This document shows positions 4,941 to 27,107 of a DNA stretch of 32,376 bases, in pieces. The stretch lies in contig CAKPPA010000001.1 of assembly GCA_934177025.1 (NCBI GenBank), positions 1 through 32,376 of the forward strand, read 5' to 3'. Position numbers and translations under genes: made by a program. The notes beneath the pieces were generated by a model that was given only the letters and a program-made list of their open reading frames with translations, was not told where the DNA came from and ran no database searches. The stretch comes from an uncultured Clostridia bacterium. GTDB taxonomy: Bacteria > Bacillota > Clostridia > Christensenellales > CAG-314. How positions within the stretch are numbered: the first letter of the stretch is position 1; each line of letters begins with the position of its first letter.

Positions 4941-5981
4941 TTATTTTACGGTTTTTTCGTAAATCCGATGTACGGCAGTCACTTCGGCGTGGAGCCGCTC
5001 GGCCATTTCCAACTCCGTAAAGGCGTTCTCCGCAATTTTGTGTAGCACAATCTTTTCGCAGGAGGACGGAATGCGCCGCCGCATTTGCTCCAAAATGACG
5101 TAAAACATATCCTTTTGCAAGTACGTTTGTTTGCAACAAAGCGCAAGGACGTGGAACGTCGACCGATCCGCCGAATCTTCCTCCTTTCGTCGTGCAAAAA
5201 TTCGTTTCCTTTTCCCCAGCGTGTCCTCAAAGCCGCCGGCACAAAAACCTACCGGATGCGAAAGTTCGTCCTTAAGTAGCAACATCACGTTCGGTTTTCG
5301 CAGCATCCCCAACAACTCCGGATAGCCGTTTAAAAACGCTTCGGAAATGCTTACGGTACTTTCCTCGTACTTGTCCTTATCCGCAATGGAAACCAAATCC
5401 TTAATTTGTGCGCATTTACTCGTGCGGAACGGCTCCGCCGCAATTCCTTCCGGCAGTTCGTCCTTTAACGCCTCGTTACGAAACGCCACGGTAAACACGT
5501 CCTTGTACTTGCCAAAACCCATTTCCTCAAACAACTGACGGTAGTATGGCGGTTGACGGAAAAAGAATTTTTCCTCGCCGAAAATCGGGCAGCCGTCGCC
5601 GTTAAACGGATTAAACGTGCAAACCGGCCCTTTCAGCCGCGACACCCCGTACTTTTTCATTTGCAAAAACACACTTTCGAACAGCAGTTGCGCCGTCGCA
5701 ACGGAATCCTCACAGTAAAAATAACAAAAATAACACGTCGGGCAATCGCCGCAATGCTTGTCGTTTTCAAAATAAAACAACGTTTGCGCCTTAATTTGAC
5801 CGCCGTCCCTTACGGCAACCGCAAAAACGTTGCGCTTGGAAAGCACCGCCCCGCTTAATTTTTTAAAATAATGGCGGAACAAAAGATTCGCCGTTTTTTC
5901 CTTTTCGGCGGCGACGTATGGGAATTGCGAATAGACGAATTTTTTTAATTCTCTTTTCGTCGAAATGAGTTTTACTTCCAT
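4941..5981 (-). CDS. hypothetical protein, probably a GNAT-like acyltransferase-fold family member
   Basis: 346 aa. The segment LKGPVCTFNPFNGDGCPIFGEEKFFFRQPPYYRQLFEEMGFGKYKDVF resembles the GPI..S.N...G.L..GF......M.YNPPYY..L.E..GF.K pattern of an uncharacterised GNAT-like family, recalled from memory. It also has a Cys cluster, HCGDCPTCYFCYFYC. Confidence 0.4.
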   Translation of the reverse strand: MEVKLISTKRELKKFVYSQFPYVAAEKEKTANLLFRHYFKKLSGAVLSKRNVFAVAVRDGGQIKAQTLFYFENDKHCGDCPTCYFCYFYCEDSVATAQLLFESVFLQMKKYGVSRLKGPVCTFNPFNGDGCPIFGEEKFFFRQPPYYRQLFEEMGFGKYKDVFTVAFRNEALKDELPEGIAAEPFRTSKCAQIKDLVSIADKDKYEESTVSISEAFLNGYPELLGMLRKPNVMLLLKDELSHPVGFCAGGFEDTLGKRKRIFARRKEEDSADRSTFHVLALCCKQTYLQKDMFYVILEQMRRRIPSSCEKIVLHKIAENAFTELEMAERLHAEVTAVHRIYEKTVK

Positions 5982-12248: not shown

Positions 12249-12277
12249 AGTATAAAGGTTTTGCCGCAAGGAATCAA
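12249..12277 (-). promoter_or_regulatory. candidate promoter of the MFS gene
   Basis: Minus strand reads TTGATT (12277..12272), 17-nt spacer, TATACT (12254..12249), about 28 nt upstream of the ATG. Confidence 0.5.
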
Positions 12278-19775: not shown

Positions 19776-20552
19776 ATGGAAAAAAGAAAGAACGACAACG
19801 AAGGACATCGGGAACGCGTCCGTCAAAAAATTGAGGAAGGCGGCATAGAACACTTTCATCCGCACGAAGTGTTGGAGTATTTGCTGTTTCAAATTGTGCC
19901 TTACCGCGACACCAACAAAATCGCACACGAAATGTTGGACTATTTCGGCAGTTTTTCCGGCGTTTTAAACGCCCCGAAGGAGGAACTGATGAAATTCCCC
20001 TTCATTTCCGACCGCGGCGCACTGTTTTTAAACAGCCTCCCCGACATTTTTCGCTACTACTGCCGCGACAATTTAAGTAATCGCAAATGCCTGCAAACGG
20101 TGTCGCAAGTTTGGGAGTACTGCAAGGAACTGTTAAGTTTTTCGACGAACGAGGAATTGTACCTCATTTGCCTCGATGCCTCCAACGTCATTTTAGGGAC
20201 GTTCCGTTTGGCGGAAGGCAGCGTCAACACGGTGGAGGTTTCCGTTGTGGAAATCGTCCGCAAAATTTTAACGTTTCACGCATCCTCCGTCATCCTTGCG
20301 CACTCGCACCCGCGCGGCCATGCCAGCCCATCCATGCAGGACGAGCACATTACGCAAATTTTATGCAGCACCCTGATGGGGATTCAAGTGGATTTACTGG
20401 AACACATCATCATTGCGGGGACGGACAAATTTTACAGTTTTAACCACAGCGGCAAACTAAACGGTTACCGAAACACCTATCTGAACTACCATCATATGCC
20501 GAGTTTCACACAAAACAACGGAGGTCTTTACGACGATGTCACAGAAGATTGA
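19776..20552 (+). CDS. radC: RadC-family JAB/MPN domain protein
   Basis: JAMM motif AHSHPRGHASPSMQD. The N-terminal HhH-like region has HRERVRQK...EVLEYLL. Confidence 0.85.
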   Translation: MEKRKNDNEGHRERVRQKIEEGGIEHFHPHEVLEYLLFQIVPYRDTNKIAHEMLDYFGSFSGVLNAPKEELMKFPFISDRGALFLNSLPDIFRYYCRDNLSNRKCLQTVSQVWEYCKELLSFSTNEELYLICLDASNVILGTFRLAEGSVNTVEVSVVEIVRKILTFHASSVILAHSHPRGHASPSMQDEHITQILCSTLMGIQVDLLEHIIIAGTDKFYSFNHSGKLNGYRNTYLNYHHMPSFTQNNGGLYDDVTED

Positions 20553-21993: not shown

Positions 21994-22026
21994 CCTTTTT
22001 GCCCCTGCCGTTCGGCACACGAGGCG

Positions 22027-22071
22027 GAATCGGTTTTTTAAGCGTTACGAATTTACAAAAAAAGGAAGTGA
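22027..22071. repeat. left copy of the 45/46-nt direct repeat flanking the AT-rich islet
   Basis: GAATCGGTTTTTTAAGCGTTACGAATTTACAAAAAAAGGAAGTGA. The last 30 nt (22042..22071) are identical to 23271..23300. Confidence 0.85.
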
Positions 22072-22107
22072 TAGGGTTGTCACTTTTGAAACTAGTAGAA
22101 TAAAAAT

Positions 22108-22162
22108 AAGGAACAATGCTCTTTGGGGGTTCCCCTCATTTAAAAAGCAAAGTTCCTTTTTT
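22108..22162. terminator. long imperfect hairpin with flanking T/A runs, probable terminator of the XRE gene
   Basis: AAGGAAC (22108..22114) pairs with GTTCCTT (22152..22158) and encloses an inner GCTCTTT/AAAAAGC pairing. TTTT follows on the plus strand and ATTTTTATT on the minus strand. Confidence 0.4.
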
Positions 22163-22248
22163 ATTTGTTGCAAAAATGGTTGTCCAAGGGTTAAAATAAT
22201 TAAAACTAGTAAAAAAAGCATATTTTTAATATATATCCTTTTAATATT

Positions 22249-22458
22249 CTAATACGCTCCGACCAATTCATCAATAGAGATATTAAAAAATTTCGCAAGT
22301 ACAATTAAAGAATGCATGGTTGGTTCTCTAAGACCATTTTCCCACAAACTAATAACTCCTTTACTCACCCCTATTGCTTTAGCTAATTCAACTTGACCCA
22401 AAAATTTTTCTTGTCTTAATTCTTTTAAATTTTCTTTAAACTTATTTTGATATATCAT
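22249..22458 (-). CDS. XRE-family helix-turn-helix transcriptional regulator
   Basis: 69 aa. LRQEKFLGQVELAKAIGVSKGVISLWENGLREPTMHSLIVLAKFFNISIDELVG is a classic Cro/C1-type HTH. Confidence 0.85.
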   Translation of the reverse strand: MIYQNKFKENLKELRQEKFLGQVELAKAIGVSKGVISLWENGLREPTMHSLIVLAKFFNISIDELVGAY

Positions 22459-22469
22459 ATTTTGATGTT

Positions 22470-22520
22470 CTCACAAATGTAAGAAGAATACTTGACTTCT
22501 TACAAATGTAAGAATATAAT
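22470..22520 (+). promoter_or_regulatory. promoter of the zinc-ribbon gene with two palindromic operators
   Basis: TTGACT (22492..22497), 17-nt spacer, TATAAT (22515..22520). Operators are CTCACAAATGTAAG (22470..22483) and the perfect palindrome CTTACAAATGTAAG (22499..22512, inside the spacer), 29 nt apart. Confidence 0.6.
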
Positions 22521-22551
22521 ATGATTAAATTATAAAAGGAGGAAAAGTAAG

Positions 22552-22875
22552 ATGAAATGTTCAAAATGCGGAAAGGAAATCCATGATGATGCGGAAATTT
22601 GTGTTCATTGTGGTTGTAGGGTAAAAAATGAACCAATATTAACTTCAAATGATAGTAAAAACGCAGTAAGGTTTGCTTTAACATTTTTCTTAGGTTTTAT
22701 CGGCAGTTTTATTATAAATCACACAAATTTAAAACCTGATGGATGGAAATCAAGAACTTGTGCGTATTTTTTTCTTTCCCTTGTTACTTTTGGTATTTAT
22801 CAATTAGTTGCTTCAATTTGCAATTTTACCTTTAATGCTCAACAATCTTCAAACATAGGATATTTTAAAGATTAG
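22552..22875 (+). CDS. zinc-ribbon plus TM2-like two-helix membrane protein
   Basis: 107 aa. CSKCGKEIHDDAEICVHCGC provides four Cys. Hydrophobic segments FALTFFLGFIGSFIINH and CAYFFLSLVTFGIYQLVASI follow. SD AAGGAGG lies 9 nt upstream. Confidence 0.7.
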   Translation: MKCSKCGKEIHDDAEICVHCGCRVKNEPILTSNDSKNAVRFALTFFLGFIGSFIINHTNLKPDGWKSRTCAYFFLSLVTFGIYQLVASICNFTFNAQQSSNIGYFKD

Positions 22876-23015
22876 TAACTTATTTATAAATATATGAATA
22901 AAACAAACTAAAAAGCCACCTTAGTATTTAAACGTGTGCTTATCTTGATACAAGTGTTCTCGCTTCGCTCGAACAGACAAGCACGCTCCTATAACTAAAT
23001 TGAAGCAACCAAAAA

Positions 23016-23053
23016 GTGAAAGTGTTGGTGGACGTAACACACTTTCGCTTTTT
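23016..23053 (+). terminator. terminator downstream of the zinc-ribbon gene
   Basis: GTGAAAGTGT (23016..23025) pairs with ACACTTTCGC (23039..23048) around a 13-nt loop. TTTTT follows. Confidence 0.6.
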
Positions 23054-23254
23054 GCTGTTCTATACAATGTCTAATTTATTCTATGGTGCACTTGGCAAGG
23101 GGTTCTGAAATGATTTTTCTTTTGCTGGTTAAACCAGAGAAACGCTATTTGTGCTTGTGGGGCTTCGCCCTTTTCCTTTCTCTGCCTTTTTGTATTTTTT
23201 CATTTCTTCTCTTGTCAAGTACCTTTCACGGCATAAAATAGCCCATAAAAAAGC

Positions 23255-23300
23255 GAATCGGTTGTTTAAAGCGTTACGAATTTACAAAAAAAGGAAGTGA
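23255..23300. repeat. right copy of the direct repeat flanking the islet
   Basis: GAATCGGTTGTTTAAAGCGTTACGAATTTACAAAAAAAGGAAGTGA. It differs from the left copy by one substitution and one extra A. Confidence 0.85.
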
Positions 23301-23317
23301 CAACACTTCCTTTTTTT
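23286..23317. terminator. bidirectional terminator (argS, and ancestrally gltX)
   Basis: AAAAAAA-GGAAGTG-ACAA-CACTTCC-TTTTTTT, 20 nt from the argS stop. Confidence 0.8.
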
Positions 23318-23336
23318 CTTTTTTTGTTTTTTTCGA

Positions 23337-25028
23337 TTACATTTTTTCCGGTGCGCGAATGCCTAGTAGCCCTAAACCGGTTTTTAACACAATGCCTGTT
23401 GCTTCCGTCAAATTGCGCCGCGCCGCAAACACGCCGTCGCTGTCGTCAAGGATACGGCACGCCATGTAAAACTTGTTAAAGCGTTGGCTGACGTCGATTA
23501 AATATTTTGCCAAAACGGACGGCTCGTATTTTTCCGCCGCATCCCGAATCGTTTGCGGAAAGGCGTTCAAAAGTTTTGCCAATTCCATGCTTTCGGCATT
23601 TTCGTAGGCGTCCTTGTCCACCGTGCCGCAAAAGCGGCCTTCCGCCTTGCGTAGCACCGAACACGTGCGTGCGTAAGTGTACTGAATGTAAGGGGAAGTT
23701 TCGCCGTCGAAATTCAACACGCGATCGAAAGTAAACGTAATGTCCTTAATGCGTGCGTTTTGCAATGCGCTAAACACCACCGCACCGACGCCCACGTCCT
23801 CCGCGATTTCCTCCTTGCGTTCCAACTCCGGATTTTTTTCGGAAATAATGCGATAGGATTTTTCCACCGCCTGATCCAACACGTCGCTCAACCAAACGAC
23901 GTTGCCCTGACGGGTGGACATGCTGCCCTCCTCCAGCGACACCATGCCGTAAGCAACATGCACCAAATCCTTCGCCCAATCGTAGCCCATCAATTCCAGC
24001 ACTTTAAAAAATTGACGGAAATGCAAATTTTGCTGATACGCCACCACGTACAACGACTTATCGAAATCGTAAGTGTTTTTGCGGTAAATTGCCGCCGCTA
24101 AATCCCTCGTTGCATAAAGCGTGGCTCCGTCCGCCTTCACCAACAGGCACGGCGGCATGTCGAACTTGCTTAAATCCACGACTTTTGCGCCTTCGCTGGT
24201 TTGTAGCAACCCTTGTTGTTCCAACTCGTCCAACACGGGTTGCATTTTGTCGTTATAAAAACTTTCGCCGTTGTAGCTGTCAAAGGATACGCCCAGCCGC
24301 TCGTAAATTTTGCCTACTTCCGTGAGCGTAATTTCCTTAAACCAACGGAACAATTCCATTGCTTCCGCATCGCCGTCCTCAATTTTTTTAAACCAACCGC
24401 GCGCTTGCTCCGTCAATTCGGGCTGCGTTTCCTCCTCACGATGAAACCGCACGTAAATTTCCTGCAGGGCTTTTACGCCTTCGCGTTCGATTTTTTCCTT
24501 GTCGCCCCACAATTTGTAAGCGACAATCAGTTTGCCGAACTGCGTGCCCCAATCCCCCAAGTGATTGATTCCCACCACGCGATACCCTTCAAACCGCAAA
24601 AGTTTGCACAGTGCGTTGCCGATGGCCGTCGTGCCGAGGTGCCCGATGTGAAAGGGTTTTGCAATGTTGACGGACGAATAATCGATGCAAACGGTTTTGC
24701 CGCTCCCTACGTCGCTTTTGCCGAACGCTTCACCTAAGGACAAAATTTCCTCCGTCACGGTTTGGCAAAACGCGCCTTTTTTCAGCGTTACGTTAAAATA
24801 GCCGTTCACTGCTTCCACACGGCTTACCCACTCGTTTTGCGGAAACGCCGCAACGAACTCTTCCGCAATTTTTTGCGGCGGCTTCCGCAGCAATTTCGAA
24901 AATTTAAAACAAGGCAGCGACAAATCGCCCAGCGTAGGATCCGCCGTGTTCGTCAATGCCGCCAAAACTTCCTCCCGACTTGCTCCGTCGATGCAAATCA
25001 AATCCGCCACAATCCGTTTAAAATCCAT
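23337..25028 (-). CDS. argS: arginine-tRNA ligase
   Basis: 563 aa with HIGH region NIAKPFHIGHLGTTAIGNAL. The length and the C-terminal anticodon-binding region ending in M are typical of ArgS. Confidence 0.9.
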   Translation of the reverse strand: MDFKRIVADLICIDGASREEVLAALTNTADPTLGDLSLPCFKFSKLLRKPPQKIAEEFVAAFPQNEWVSRVEAVNGYFNVTLKKGAFCQTVTEEILSLGEAFGKSDVGSGKTVCIDYSSVNIAKPFHIGHLGTTAIGNALCKLLRFEGYRVVGINHLGDWGTQFGKLIVAYKLWGDKEKIEREGVKALQEIYVRFHREEETQPELTEQARGWFKKIEDGDAEAMELFRWFKEITLTEVGKIYERLGVSFDSYNGESFYNDKMQPVLDELEQQGLLQTSEGAKVVDLSKFDMPPCLLVKADGATLYATRDLAAAIYRKNTYDFDKSLYVVAYQQNLHFRQFFKVLELMGYDWAKDLVHVAYGMVSLEEGSMSTRQGNVVWLSDVLDQAVEKSYRIISEKNPELERKEEIAEDVGVGAVVFSALQNARIKDITFTFDRVLNFDGETSPYIQYTYARTCSVLRKAEGRFCGTVDKDAYENAESMELAKLLNAFPQTIRDAAEKYEPSVLAKYLIDVSQRFNKFYMACRILDDSDGVFAARRNLTEATGIVLKTGLGLLGIRAPEKM

Positions 25029-25085
25029 TCTTTTCCCTTCCGTTAAATAAGATTCGGCTTTATTTTAGCACAGCGCGCCCGAAAA

Positions 25086-25844
25086 TCAAAGTAAAATCAA
25101 AGAGATTAAAAACGGGATCGCCAGATACACCGCAAAATACTTCATTTTTGCGCTTTGCAACAACTTTTGCACAAACACAATGGCAATCGCCCCCGAAATC
25201 GCCGCGCAAATCACGCCGCTTACGGTCGGCAACACGGCAACGTTTTGCCATTCCGTGGCGGTCATCGTCAAGCCTTCCACCAAACCGCTGCCGCAAATAA
25301 TCGGAATGCTTAACAAAAAACTGAATTCCCCCGCGTCCTCACGCTTTACGCCGCACAAACACATGGCGGAAATCGTACTGCCGCTGCGCGACAACCCCGG
25401 TAACACTGCCAGCCCCTGCACAAATCCCGTCAACAGCGGCACCCAAGGTTGCGTTTCCTCCACGCTTTGCCGATTTTTGCCGAACGTTTCGCCCAGCACC
25501 AGCAAAATTGCGGTCAGTAAAAACCCTACCGGCAGGAGTGCCCCTTTTACCAAGTCCTCCAAATAAAACCGAAACACAAACGCCAAGCCGAACGTCGGCA
25601 CGCACGCCAACAGGAAGTACAGCGTTTTTTTGGAAAACGGGTGACGCACCAACGCCCAAATGCTTTTTCGGTACAAAAAAATCACGGCGGCAAGGCTGCC
25701 GAGATGCAACATTAAATGAAAAAACAAATTTTCCGGAATTTGAAACAATTTTTCCGCCAACAACAAATGTCCGCTGGAACTGACGGGCAAAAATTCCGTC
25801 AAGCCCTGCAACGTCCCTAACAAGATTCCTTCCCAAAAACTCAT
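25086..25844 (-). CDS. uppP: undecaprenyl-diphosphate phosphatase
   Basis: N-terminal GLTEFLPVSSSGHLLL motif, PGLSRSG motif, 252 aa, polytopic. Confidence 0.85.
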   Translation of the reverse strand: MSFWEGILLGTLQGLTEFLPVSSSGHLLLAEKLFQIPENLFFHLMLHLGSLAAVIFLYRKSIWALVRHPFSKKTLYFLLACVPTFGLAFVFRFYLEDLVKGALLPVGFLLTAILLVLGETFGKNRQSVEETQPWVPLLTGFVQGLAVLPGLSRSGSTISAMCLCGVKREDAGEFSFLLSIPIICGSGLVEGLTMTATEWQNVAVLPTVSGVICAAISGAIAIVFVQKLLQSAKMKYFAVYLAIPFLISLILL

Positions 25845-25861
25845 ACTTTCCCCGCAACCCT

Positions 25862-25890
25862 TTTACAAACCGACAAAAACGTTGTATAAT
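25862..25890 (+). promoter_or_regulatory. candidate ychF promoter
   Basis: TTTACA (25862..25867), 17-nt spacer, TATAAT (25885..25890). This implies a leader of about 110 nt. Confidence 0.45.
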
Positions 25891-26009
25891 ATTTTCGTTT
25901 TACGAACGTATTTTATCACAAAACCGTTTGCGAAAAAACCCTTTTTCGCTTCTCCCTAATTAATTGTAGCGAATTTTCGGGTTTTTAGACCGAGCGAGAG
26001 GAGATTTTT

Positions 26010-27107
26010 ATGGAATTGGGCGTAGTCGGACTACCGAACGTCGGCAAAAGTACCCTGTTTAACGCAATTACGCATGCGGGCGCGGAAAGCGCAAACTACC
26101 CGTTTTGCACCATTGAACCAAACGTCGGCATTGTGGACGTGCCGGACGAACGCTTGCAAAAACTTGCGGCGTTGTACCAAAGTCAAAAAATTACGCCGGC
26201 ATTTTTGAAATTTGTGGACATCGCCGGCCTTGTGAAAGGCGCAAGCAAAGGCGAAGGGCTCGGCAACAAATTTTTAAGCCACATCCGCGAAGTGGATGCC
26301 ATCGTGCACGTCGTGCGCTGTTTCGAGGATCCGAACGTAACGCACGTCGACAACAGCGTCGACCCGACGCGGGACATGGAAACAATTAACCTCGAATTGA
26401 TTTTTGCCGACATGGAAACCGTAACTTCCCGTTTGGACAAAGTAAAAAGTTTGTTTAAAACGGGGGACAAAATTTACCGTTTTCAGGCGGAAGTGTTGGA
26501 AAAATGCCTTGCGCAACTCGAAAAAGGCATGCCGGTGCGCACCCTTTCCTTCCATGAGGAGGAGGCCGCTTACGTACAAAGTTTGTTTTTACTGACCTCG
26601 AAGCCCGTCGTTTACGCCGCAAACATTGCGGAGGAGGATCTCGGCAAAGCGGAGGATTCCTTGCCGCTTGTCGCGCAAGTAAAAAAACAGGCGGAAAAGG
26701 AACAAGCGGAAGTGCTGGTGATTTGCGCCAAAACGGAGGAGGATTTAGCCCTCCTGAACGACGACGAACGGCAGGAGTTTTACTTGGAACTCGGCATTTC
26801 GGAAAGCGGCCTCAATCGCTTGGTGAAAAAATGCTATCATCTTTTGGGACTCATTTCCTACCTGACGGCGGGCGAAAAGGAAACGCGCGCATGGACGGTG
26901 AAGGAAGGCACCAAAGCCCCGCAAGCCGCGGGAAAAATTCACAGCGACTTCGAAAAAGGCTTTATTCGTGCGGAAATCGTCCCTTACGAAACCTTGCTCG
27001 AATGCGGCTCCTTCCACGCAGCCAAGGAAAAAGGCAAAGTGCGTAGCGAAGGCAAGGAGTACGTCATGAAGGACGGCGACGTGGTGCTGTTCCGCTTTAA
27101 CGTGTAA
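26010..27107 (+). CDS. ychF: redox-regulated ATPase YchF
   Basis: G1 motif GLPNVGKSTLFNA, DIAGLVKGAS, and a C-terminal TGS-like domain ending in DGDVVLFRFNV. SD GAGAGGAG lies upstream. Confidence 0.9.
   Translation: MELGVVGLPNVGKSTLFNAITHAGAESANYPFCTIEPNVGIVDVPDERLQKLAALYQSQKITPAFLKFVDIAGLVKGASKGEGLGNKFLSHIREVDAIVHVVRCFEDPNVTHVDNSVDPTRDMETINLELIFADMETVTSRLDKVKSLFKTGDKIYRFQAEVLEKCLAQLEKGMPVRTLSFHEEEAAYVQSLFLLTSKPVVYAANIAEEDLGKAEDSLPLVAQVKKQAEKEQAEVLVICAKTEEDLALLNDDERQEFYLELGISESGLNRLVKKCYHLLGLISYLTAGEKETRAWTVKEGTKAPQAAGKIHSDFEKGFIRAEIVPYETLLECGSFHAAKEKGKVRSEGKEYVMKDGDVVLFRFNV

Follow-up and report, generated by a model that had tools for sequence, protein, structure and literature searches.

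A foreign low-GC two-gene cassette bounded by a 45/46-nt direct repeat in the gltX–argS intergenic region of an uncultured Clostridia bacterium: a footprint suggestive of insertion with target duplication

How did about 1.2 kb of AT-rich DNA come to lie between the convergent housekeeping genes gltX and argS, bounded by two copies of a 45/46-nt direct repeat and carrying no recombination enzyme of its own? The question is raised by a 32,376-nt stretch of the genome of an uncultured Clostridia bacterium (CAG-314; assembly GCA_934177025.1, contig CAKPPA010000001.1), hereafter the window, and it is these 32 kb of the host that were covered by the analysis. According to the original prediction, made from the letters of the sequence, a foreign element had integrated in the loop of the gltX/argS terminator, the repeats were its attachment cores attL and attR, and the DNA between them was either a decayed remnant or an element mobilized in trans. 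The insertion of foreign DNA in the terminator loop was borne out by codon composition, by homology to cassettes in other genomes and by the position of the junction. The account of its arrival to which we lean, with moderate confidence, is a one-off, host-mediated illegitimate insertion of a foreign cassette accompanied by a 45-bp target duplication.

The same islet structure was present in independent assemblies of other samples (L001 and L002/L004; 99.995–100% identity), and an assembly artefact was therefore ruled out. The inserted DNA occupies positions 22072–23254 (1183 nt), as delimited by GC content, by GC content at third codon positions (GC3) and by homology to cassettes in other genomes. 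It was found to be far more AT-rich than its surroundings, as predicted, with a windowed GC content of 0.24–0.30 over 22072–22875 and 0.35–0.38 over 22876–23254 versus about 0.50 in both flanks; overall, the GC content is about 28% for the insert and about 50% for the host, and the insert is the sole such trough in the window. The codon usage check proposed with the prediction was run and gave GC3 values of 0.21 and 0.18 for the two islet genes, designated XRE and ZnR, against 0.61–0.64 for the neighbouring pepV, radC, gltX, argS and uppP. The nucleotide identity of the cassette was 92.75% to that of locus L086 (host GC 0.30), 85–87% to those of L096, L097 and L098 and 84% to that of L195, and cassettes 84–93% identical to it occur in hosts of 26–41% GC. 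The host GltX, by contrast, had a single relative at about 90% identity (P0241), all other matches among 5.8 billion protein clusters being at 73% or below. Since low GC and GC3 are combined with a high cassette identity, set against such distant GltX relatives, the foreign origin of the inserted DNA, by horizontal transfer from a low-GC donor, is secure. The synonymous divergence (dS) between the window cassette and that of L086 was 0.136. The ratio of nonsynonymous to synonymous divergence (dN/dS) was 0.16–0.42; the islet genes are intact and under purifying selection.

The insert is a complete, self-contained two-gene cassette rather than a gene-poor remnant. Its conserved left end is the XRE terminator, a hairpin with a U-tract on the minus strand (22099–22165; identified by folding and conserved in L086 and L098). 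The XRE gene itself (22249–22458, minus strand) encodes a 69-aa XRE/Cro-C1-type helix-turn-helix repressor, which belongs to the Pfam family HTH_3 (PF01381; 55.3 bits at a cut-off of 23, E = 6.7e-15, residues 11–65). The divergent ZnR gene (22552–22875, plus strand) encodes a protein of 107 aa, predicted to have a CxxC...CxxC zinc ribbon at its N-terminus and two transmembrane helices. The cysteines C3, C6, C17 and C20 were invariant in 28 homologues, and an AlphaFold2 model placed helices at residues 32–57 and 65–92 with low confidence (predicted local distance difference test, 63). The best Pfam scores of ZnR were under the cut-offs (Zn_Ribbon_1, PF13240, 24.2 vs. 25 bits; DUF4234, 20.3 vs. 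25.3 bits), so that no specific family match was obtained; no toxin-family match was found in Pfam, NCBIfam or PADLOC, the only PADLOC match being PycTM at E = 0.017. The conserved right end of the cassette is the ZnR terminator (23010–23054, plus strand), a hairpin with 16-nt arms (folding z = −3.1). Between the ZnR stop codon and this terminator lies a long imperfect hairpin (22913–22990; GTGTGCTTATCT...AGACAAGCACGC), which is also conserved in L096, L098 and L195, where its stem is better; its 5′ arm is deleted in L086, and it had no Rfam match.

The divergent control region of 93 nt holds two 18-bp palindromes (TTCTyACAAATGTAAGAA) 29 nt apart. Operator O1 (TTCTCACAAATGTAAGAA, 7-nt inverted arms; 22468–22485) overlaps a weaker promoter-like site of XRE on the minus strand (22454–22483), while operator O2 (TTCTTACAAATGTAAGAA; 22497–22514) fills the spacer of the ZnR promoter, which was recognized from its sequence as TTGACT-17-TATAAT (22492–22520, plus strand; 11/12 consensus matches). 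Based on this layout of operators and promoters, XRE should repress the ZnR promoter through O2 and its own gene through O1, so that ZnR expression would be repressor-gated by a switch of the Cro/C1 or C-protein style. To the right of the cassette, the insert ends in an orphan segment of 195 nt (23060–23254, GC 0.38), in which six-frame translation revealed no convincing open reading frame (ORF). It had no homologue in any fetched locus and no significant homology to the 3′ end of gltX; it could be a flank of the donor or something else.

In agreement with the prediction that no integrase or transposase remains, the islet (22072–23254) contained no recombinase gene or remnant and no transposase ORF; among the host genes, those called across window positions 12249–32376 were checked, and none was an integrase or transposase. 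At the level of structured RNA, nothing at the site reached the Rfam gathering threshold, with only chance-level matches at E < 1. The alternative offered by the prediction, a decayed remnant, is not supported: the cassette is complete, its dN/dS indicates purifying selection, and its left boundary, as defined by homology to the sister cassettes, comes no more than about 3 nt from where the left repeat ends. This boundary reads AGGGTT, 7 nt and TTGAAAC in the window and likewise in L097. Since the left end of the cassette abuts the repeat, the cassette itself was probably joined to the target, and this end is not the edge of a larger element deleted later. On the right, homology to every sister cassette ends at 23053–23062, just past the ZnR terminator.

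The predicted repeat was recovered by alignment as a left copy of 45 nt (22027–22071), which is host sequence at the left edge, and a right copy of 46 nt (23255–23300), which is host sequence at the right edge. In an alignment of 46 columns, the copies are 95.7% identical and differ by one T/G substitution and one 1-nt indel. A block of perfect identity was likewise present, with a length of 32 nt (22040–22071 = 23269–23300) in place of the 30 nt first given. Within the 32-kb window, the repeat was confined to this junction: the 32-mer (up to 3 mismatches, both strands) had two sites only, and none of 100 shuffles matched it. When the 300 nt on each side of the insert were aligned locally, the score was 80, whereas 300 dinucleotide shuffles averaged 18.6 and did not exceed 27. 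Extension of the repeat leftward, including into gltX, was not significant. DNA-level searches for the repeat covered IMG/VR and the JGI metagenome contigs; the 45-mer had 0 matches in these collections and was absent from all fetched loci.

It is the terminators that reveal the geometry of the insertion. The original prediction did not mention that gltX has an intrinsic terminator of its own (21994–22039, plus strand; hairpin and U6, identified by RNA folding and sequence), which lies partly inside the left repeat copy: the left part of this copy (GAATCGGTTTTTT) forms the 3′ side of the terminator, closing the gltX hairpin and supplying its U-tract. The right copy runs into a second hairpin (23286–23317), the bidirectional terminator common to gltX and argS, with a perfect 14-bp A/T-extended stem and the loop ACAA (z = −3.8 on the plus strand); the right part of this copy (AAAAAAAGGAAGTGA) is the 5′ arm of the stem, as had been foreseen in the claim that the right copy completes a bidirectional terminator. 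One to two bases of the loop still belong to the repeat, and the insertion falls at the first loop base. At the left junction, the half-terminator of the host and the left end of the cassette together form a hybrid hairpin (22064–22087, plus strand), which exists as described earlier except for its size, being longer, with 10 pairs including G-U and the loop GGGU in the fold obtained here. Hairpin-forming DNA is present at both junctions, and at one of them the join falls within the loop of a perfect 14-bp palindrome.

Only the outer edge of each repeat copy is a functional part of the host sequence, the inner edges abutting foreign DNA. Because each copy completes a host terminator at this outer edge alone, the 45 nt were originally single and were duplicated on insertion; the simplest reconstruction would be one original copy in the order gltX, terminator 1, spacer, terminator 2, argS. 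The reconstructed empty-site spacer is of ~114 nt and folds well (z = −3.6). No right terminator half was found after the left copy or after the cassette, and the left copy was consequently never a complete second terminator. Since each cassette gene has its own terminator and both host terminators survive, the insertion would have been neutral for the essential neighbours.

The shape of the repeat is also where the reading as attL and attR draws its support. In this explanation, a tyrosine or serine recombinase encoded elsewhere (an integrative and conjugative element (ICE), an integrative and mobilizable element (IME), a prophage or the chromosome) integrated a small circle that carried a 45-nt match to the gltX–argS spacer, and the islet would be mobilizable in cis or in trans, like a cis-mobilizable element (CIME) or a pseudo-SCC (staphylococcal cassette chromosome) element, and still excisable. 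We hold this to be possible but rather unlikely. Att identity blocks typically have such a length and such a location, immediately 3′ of a housekeeping gene; the junction falls in a perfect inverted repeat that lends itself to a reading as two recombinase-binding arms with a short spacer between them; and the orphan 195 nt next to the right repeat may represent a P arm. The repeat, however, ends one to two bases into the loop, so that the identity does not span the central overlap of the palindrome, and no recombinase gene was found in the DNA screened. It should be noted that both differences between the copies lie within the gltX-proximal 16 nt, the 32 nt by the junction being exact, as expected for a crossover near the hairpin. 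The chance of such a placement under random decay is about 0.13, and two differences in 45 nt would be in keeping with neutral decay during a period similar to that given by the dS of the cassette; the placement of the differences fails to discriminate neutral decay from the attB/attP model.

Comparison with related hosts gave no allele lacking the insert. A scan of GTDB genomes for GltX reached best identities of 67–69% and revealed no gltX–argS adjacency, and every contig that carried the GltX of the window also carried ZnR. No empty site or circular junction was found among the relatives, the fetched loci or the metagenome contigs, which is attributed to the sparse sampling of the host lineage. 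A 1164-nt Logan contig (L003) was considered as a circle and rejected: its right end (23298) is a forced graph break (k = 31) at the 32-nt repeat, a G5TTC4 run lies at its left end (22135), and neither is evidence of a circle. Contigs of several assemblies end at or just left of the XRE terminator, i.e., at the left end of the cassette (L088 and L089, starting at L086:5623, as well as L003 and L200–L203); these breaks are likely due to homopolymer or loop heterogeneity or to low-complexity AT repeats and not to structural polymorphism.

In locus L194, which carries the GltX relative P0241, nucleotide identity to the window is 82.8% up to the gltX stop codon, and the DNA after it is unrelated. 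In L176, from the next cluster (GltX 73% identical), the ychF–uppP–argS block is inverted, with an ArsB/CitMHS gene intervening (L176:6450–11449 vs. window 21994–27000). The DNA downstream of gltX is thus a rearrangement hot spot, with the gltX–argS junction as a breakpoint relative to both nearest relatives. This suggests a further explanation, namely, that the 45-nt copies are older than the cassette or unrelated to it, having arisen, for example, in the rearrangement that brought argS beside gltX; besides the breakpoint, the host-like intergenic GC content (0.38) of the 195-nt segment speaks for it. Nevertheless, we regard it as very improbable. If the repeats were older, the start of the cassette within 3 nt of the left copy would be a coincidence; there is no second right terminator arm that would have made the left copy complete; and neither the distal end of the inverted block nor any other part of the window holds a further copy of the repeat, direct or inverted. 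As to the neighbourhood of the junction in other respects, the radC stop codon overlaps the gltX start by 17 nt (20536–20552), and the radC–gltX pairing is kept in the relatives L176, L194, L008 and L028. In L194, the region past gltX (L194:5682–7453) consists of about 1.8 kb of unrelated, mostly non-coding DNA with an AT trough and a TTGACA-17-TATAAT promoter-like sequence, for which Rfam gave nothing.

The distribution of the cassette was analyzed in contexts collected by exact-protein look-up and by a metagenome scan. The search for ZnR homologues yielded 785 protein clusters (clustering at 90% identity), the 120 best of which were 70–88% identical; at 50% clustering, 68 clusters had E ≤ 1e-10, and most of these share the membrane domain only. 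The same cassette (72–93% nucleotide identity) was found in at least 11 unrelated chromosomal contexts besides the window, in low-GC gut Bacillota, and the hosts of XRE–ZnR cassettes span 26–54% GC. In L086 it lies between ndk and a sigma-factor gene, in L090 between a DUF4432 gene and a low-molecular-weight phosphatase gene, in L092 between sepF and rpiB, and in L096 and L098 between poorly conserved hypothetical, acyltransferase-like and leucine-rich-repeat genes; it adjoins the gene of a Glug-domain protein in L200 and IS21 and IS3 insertion sequence (IS) fragments in L195, and L097, L099, L100 and L102 provide four further contexts. Pairwise blastn of ten loci showed that the shared part is the 0.6–0.85-kb cassette alone (71–91% identity), the flanks having nothing in common. 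In the ZnR subfamily at roughly ≥80% identity, the gene always stands beside a co-diverging XRE gene (78–91% identical) at a spacing of 76–110 nt, with the exception of L102. Sister cassettes have 0–2 sites of the operator motif, most of them one or two (two in L086, L096 and L100), and the operators and promoter are conserved even in L100, where the cassette is GC-ameliorated.

These sister contexts speak against the att explanation. No flanking direct repeat above shuffle level was found in the eight sister contexts tested, nor was there a core shared among them; an apparent repeat of 25 + 15 nt at L086 was rejected, 74 of 300 shuffles scoring as high. Since the sister contexts contain neither the 45-mer nor significant flanking repeats, the cassette family is not accompanied by the 45-nt repeat. 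The genes called in the annotated sister contexts included no integrase, and the family had no match among 50,697 phage and 72,556 plasmid records (blastn, tblastn) or in IMG/VR (protein-pattern scan); the core was likewise absent from IMG/VR and the JGI contigs. Seven exact ZnR variants were looked up, and each had one genomic context, so that there is no sign of recent hopping of the cassette.

The patchy distribution, with the same 0.85–1.0-kb unit between its own two terminators at 11 or more unrelated intergenic sites, could alternatively reflect a selfish cassette without a recombinase, addiction-like or defence-like, that spreads in gut Bacillota with a preference for terminator hairpins by means of host repair, its older footprints having eroded. 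The tight repressor-over-promoter layout resembles the control of a harmful product, and the window copy is both the least ameliorated of the cassettes and the only one with a footprint. Such spread is, in our estimation, doubtful, and so is the notion that XRE–ZnR is an unrecognized selfish cassette exploiting host enzymes at terminators, in which ZnR would be a membrane toxin or defence effector silenced by XRE. Footprints at the sister sites are absent and not merely weak, the single context of each exact variant gives no evidence of recent hopping, and there is no evidence for toxicity or defence, PycTM (see above) being the sole PADLOC match. In addition, more distant ZnR homologues (≤78% identity) occur without XRE, as ordinary chromosomal genes; ZnR is thus a membrane protein conserved in gut Bacillota, the XRE-linked form being one of its subfamilies.

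An example of the XRE-less form is found at L177:2947–4327, where a ZnR homologue (72% identical) without XRE lies 20 nt after tsaD in a secA–prfB–tsaD row, with 24 contigs alike; here it behaves as an ordinary conserved chromosomal gene. In the mouse-gut contigs L185 (60–170) and L186 (150–270), an XRE-less homologue stands behind a TTGACA...TACAAT promoter-like sequence whose spacer contains a run of 9–10 G. Immediately upstream, the contigs of different samples cease to match, and a Fic-domain gene follows downstream; the sequence is a candidate phase-variable promoter. Among the XRE-linked cassettes, that of L195:4650–6820 (also L196–L198), from metagenome-assembled genomes labelled 'Mollicutes bacterium', encodes an XRE truncated to 50 aa, and both its operators and its −35 box are impaired, the former being degenerate and the latter weakened; directly after the cassette come an IstB_IS21 fragment and an IS3-like transposase gene. 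The spacer left of the cassette in L086 (5415–5559) has 13–18% GC and two diverged copies of a 44-nt unit (75% identical), with a weaker third at 5727.

Returning to the illegitimate insertion with target duplication, which we judge somewhat probable overall, the course of events may be pictured as follows. A single horizontal-transfer event would have placed about 1.18 kb of low-GC DNA in the gltX–argS intergenic region, the join being made between the terminator of gltX and the loop of the shared bidirectional terminator, and the stretch of 45 bp that begins in the 3′ stem of terminator 1 and ends in the loop of terminator 2 would have been doubled as a target-site duplication. The insertion would be the work of host replication or repair at hairpin-forming DNA and not of site-specific recombination at an element-borne att site. 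Two routes may be envisaged, each leading on to template switching or fill-in: cleavage of the hairpin loop, or stalling of replication at the hairpin, after which the foreign DNA would be copied and synthesis primed anew 45 nt upstream. Exactly this footprint would result from both, and it is this mechanistic step that we infer. Several points weigh against the account. As no empty site, circle junction or closer donor was found, the event is reconstructed from a single allele. A target duplication of 45 bp is, to our knowledge, far longer than that of any known transposase, and we know of no established bacterial pathway that gives such a footprint with foreign DNA. The gltX-proximal position of both differences between the copies is also predicted by an attB/attP crossover, the 195-nt segment (23060–23254) could be an arm of an element, and the recombinase screen of the host genome was confined to window positions 12249–32376. 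A search of the literature found no paper on the XRE–ZnR cassette or on long target duplications at terminators.

Among known systems, the islet works like a genomic islet and resembles a CIME in outline. As in a CIME, a small insert lies by the 3′ end of a housekeeping gene between direct repeats; it encodes no recombinase, and recombination between the repeats might in principle excise it. It differs in having no remnant genes of an ICE, IME or prophage from which it might be derived, and the relatives of its cargo are stand-alone chromosomal cassettes; in addition, its left end abuts the repeat, the sister copies have no att-like repeats, and no cognate integrase is known. Genomic islets are inserts of one or a few horizontally acquired genes between essential genes; an example is the pyolysin (plo) islet of Trueperella pyogenes (ref. 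B27 in PMC3215231). The islet described here shares with such islets a kilobase-scale insert of deviant GC content between conserved housekeeping genes and the lack of mobility genes, whereas it differs from those of the plo type in its clean 45-bp duplication ending in a terminator loop and in its cargo, a regulator and a membrane protein rather than a virulence factor.

Integrative mobile elements exploiting Xer (IMEX), such as the CTX phage and the gonococcal genetic island, are integrated DNAs without a recombinase of their own that are flanked by repeated copies of a host site. The islet is likewise a recombinase-less insert between repeated host-site copies; however, its repeat lacks the 11-6-11 architecture of dif (ACTTCCT and GTAAAT are 6 nt apart, not 14), no switch of GC skew occurs at the site (the cumulative skew falls monotonically through it), and gyrB–gyrA lies 4–9 kb away, which is not the terminus. 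A dif-like nature of the repeat was thus rejected on spacing, skew and location. The 69-aa HTH_3 protein and the two 18-bp palindromes 29 nt apart in a divergent promoter region recall a phage immunity switch or a C-protein unit, from which the islet differs in that the controlled gene is ZnR and not cro, lytic functions or a restriction enzyme, and in that the family has no phage context. With type II toxin–antitoxin systems whose antitoxins are of the XRE family (HigA, HipB and MqsA types) it has in common a two-gene module of less than 1 kb, an XRE-type binder, patchy sites and horizontal transfer, whereas the islet genes are divergent and not co-transcribed, and the partner matches no toxin family and has homologues that occur without XRE in operons.

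Three further candidates were rejected. An IS, transposon or miniature inverted-repeat transposable element (2–15-bp duplication) does not fit, as the only terminal inverted repeat is the host terminator, the duplication is of 45 bp and there is no transposase ORF. An integron cassette was dismissed, the islet having its own consensus promoter and two terminators, with no array and no neighbouring integrase. A tRNA-targeting island was likewise discarded: no Rfam family reached the threshold at the site, and the only tRNA genes lie at 1–159. These are two adjoining tRNA-Met(CAT) genes on the minus strand (1–75 and 82–159), which are unrelated to the islet.

The finding amounts to a fairly ordinary footprint of horizontal transfer, left by a cassette that is uncharacterized but widespread. 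What sets it apart is an unusually clean trace of a tiny piece of foreign DNA, devoid of mobility genes, entering a chromosome, and in this sense it is a single well-documented case of a known phenomenon. If further fresh insertions of the cassette were to match it, they would suggest that genes can be acquired by a terminator-associated route driven by the host, and such a route, if true, could explain the scatter of small regulator-plus-effector modules that carry no integrases. Meanwhile, ZnR, which is highly conserved and predicted to be tightly repressed, would be a reasonable candidate for functional work in gut Bacillota.

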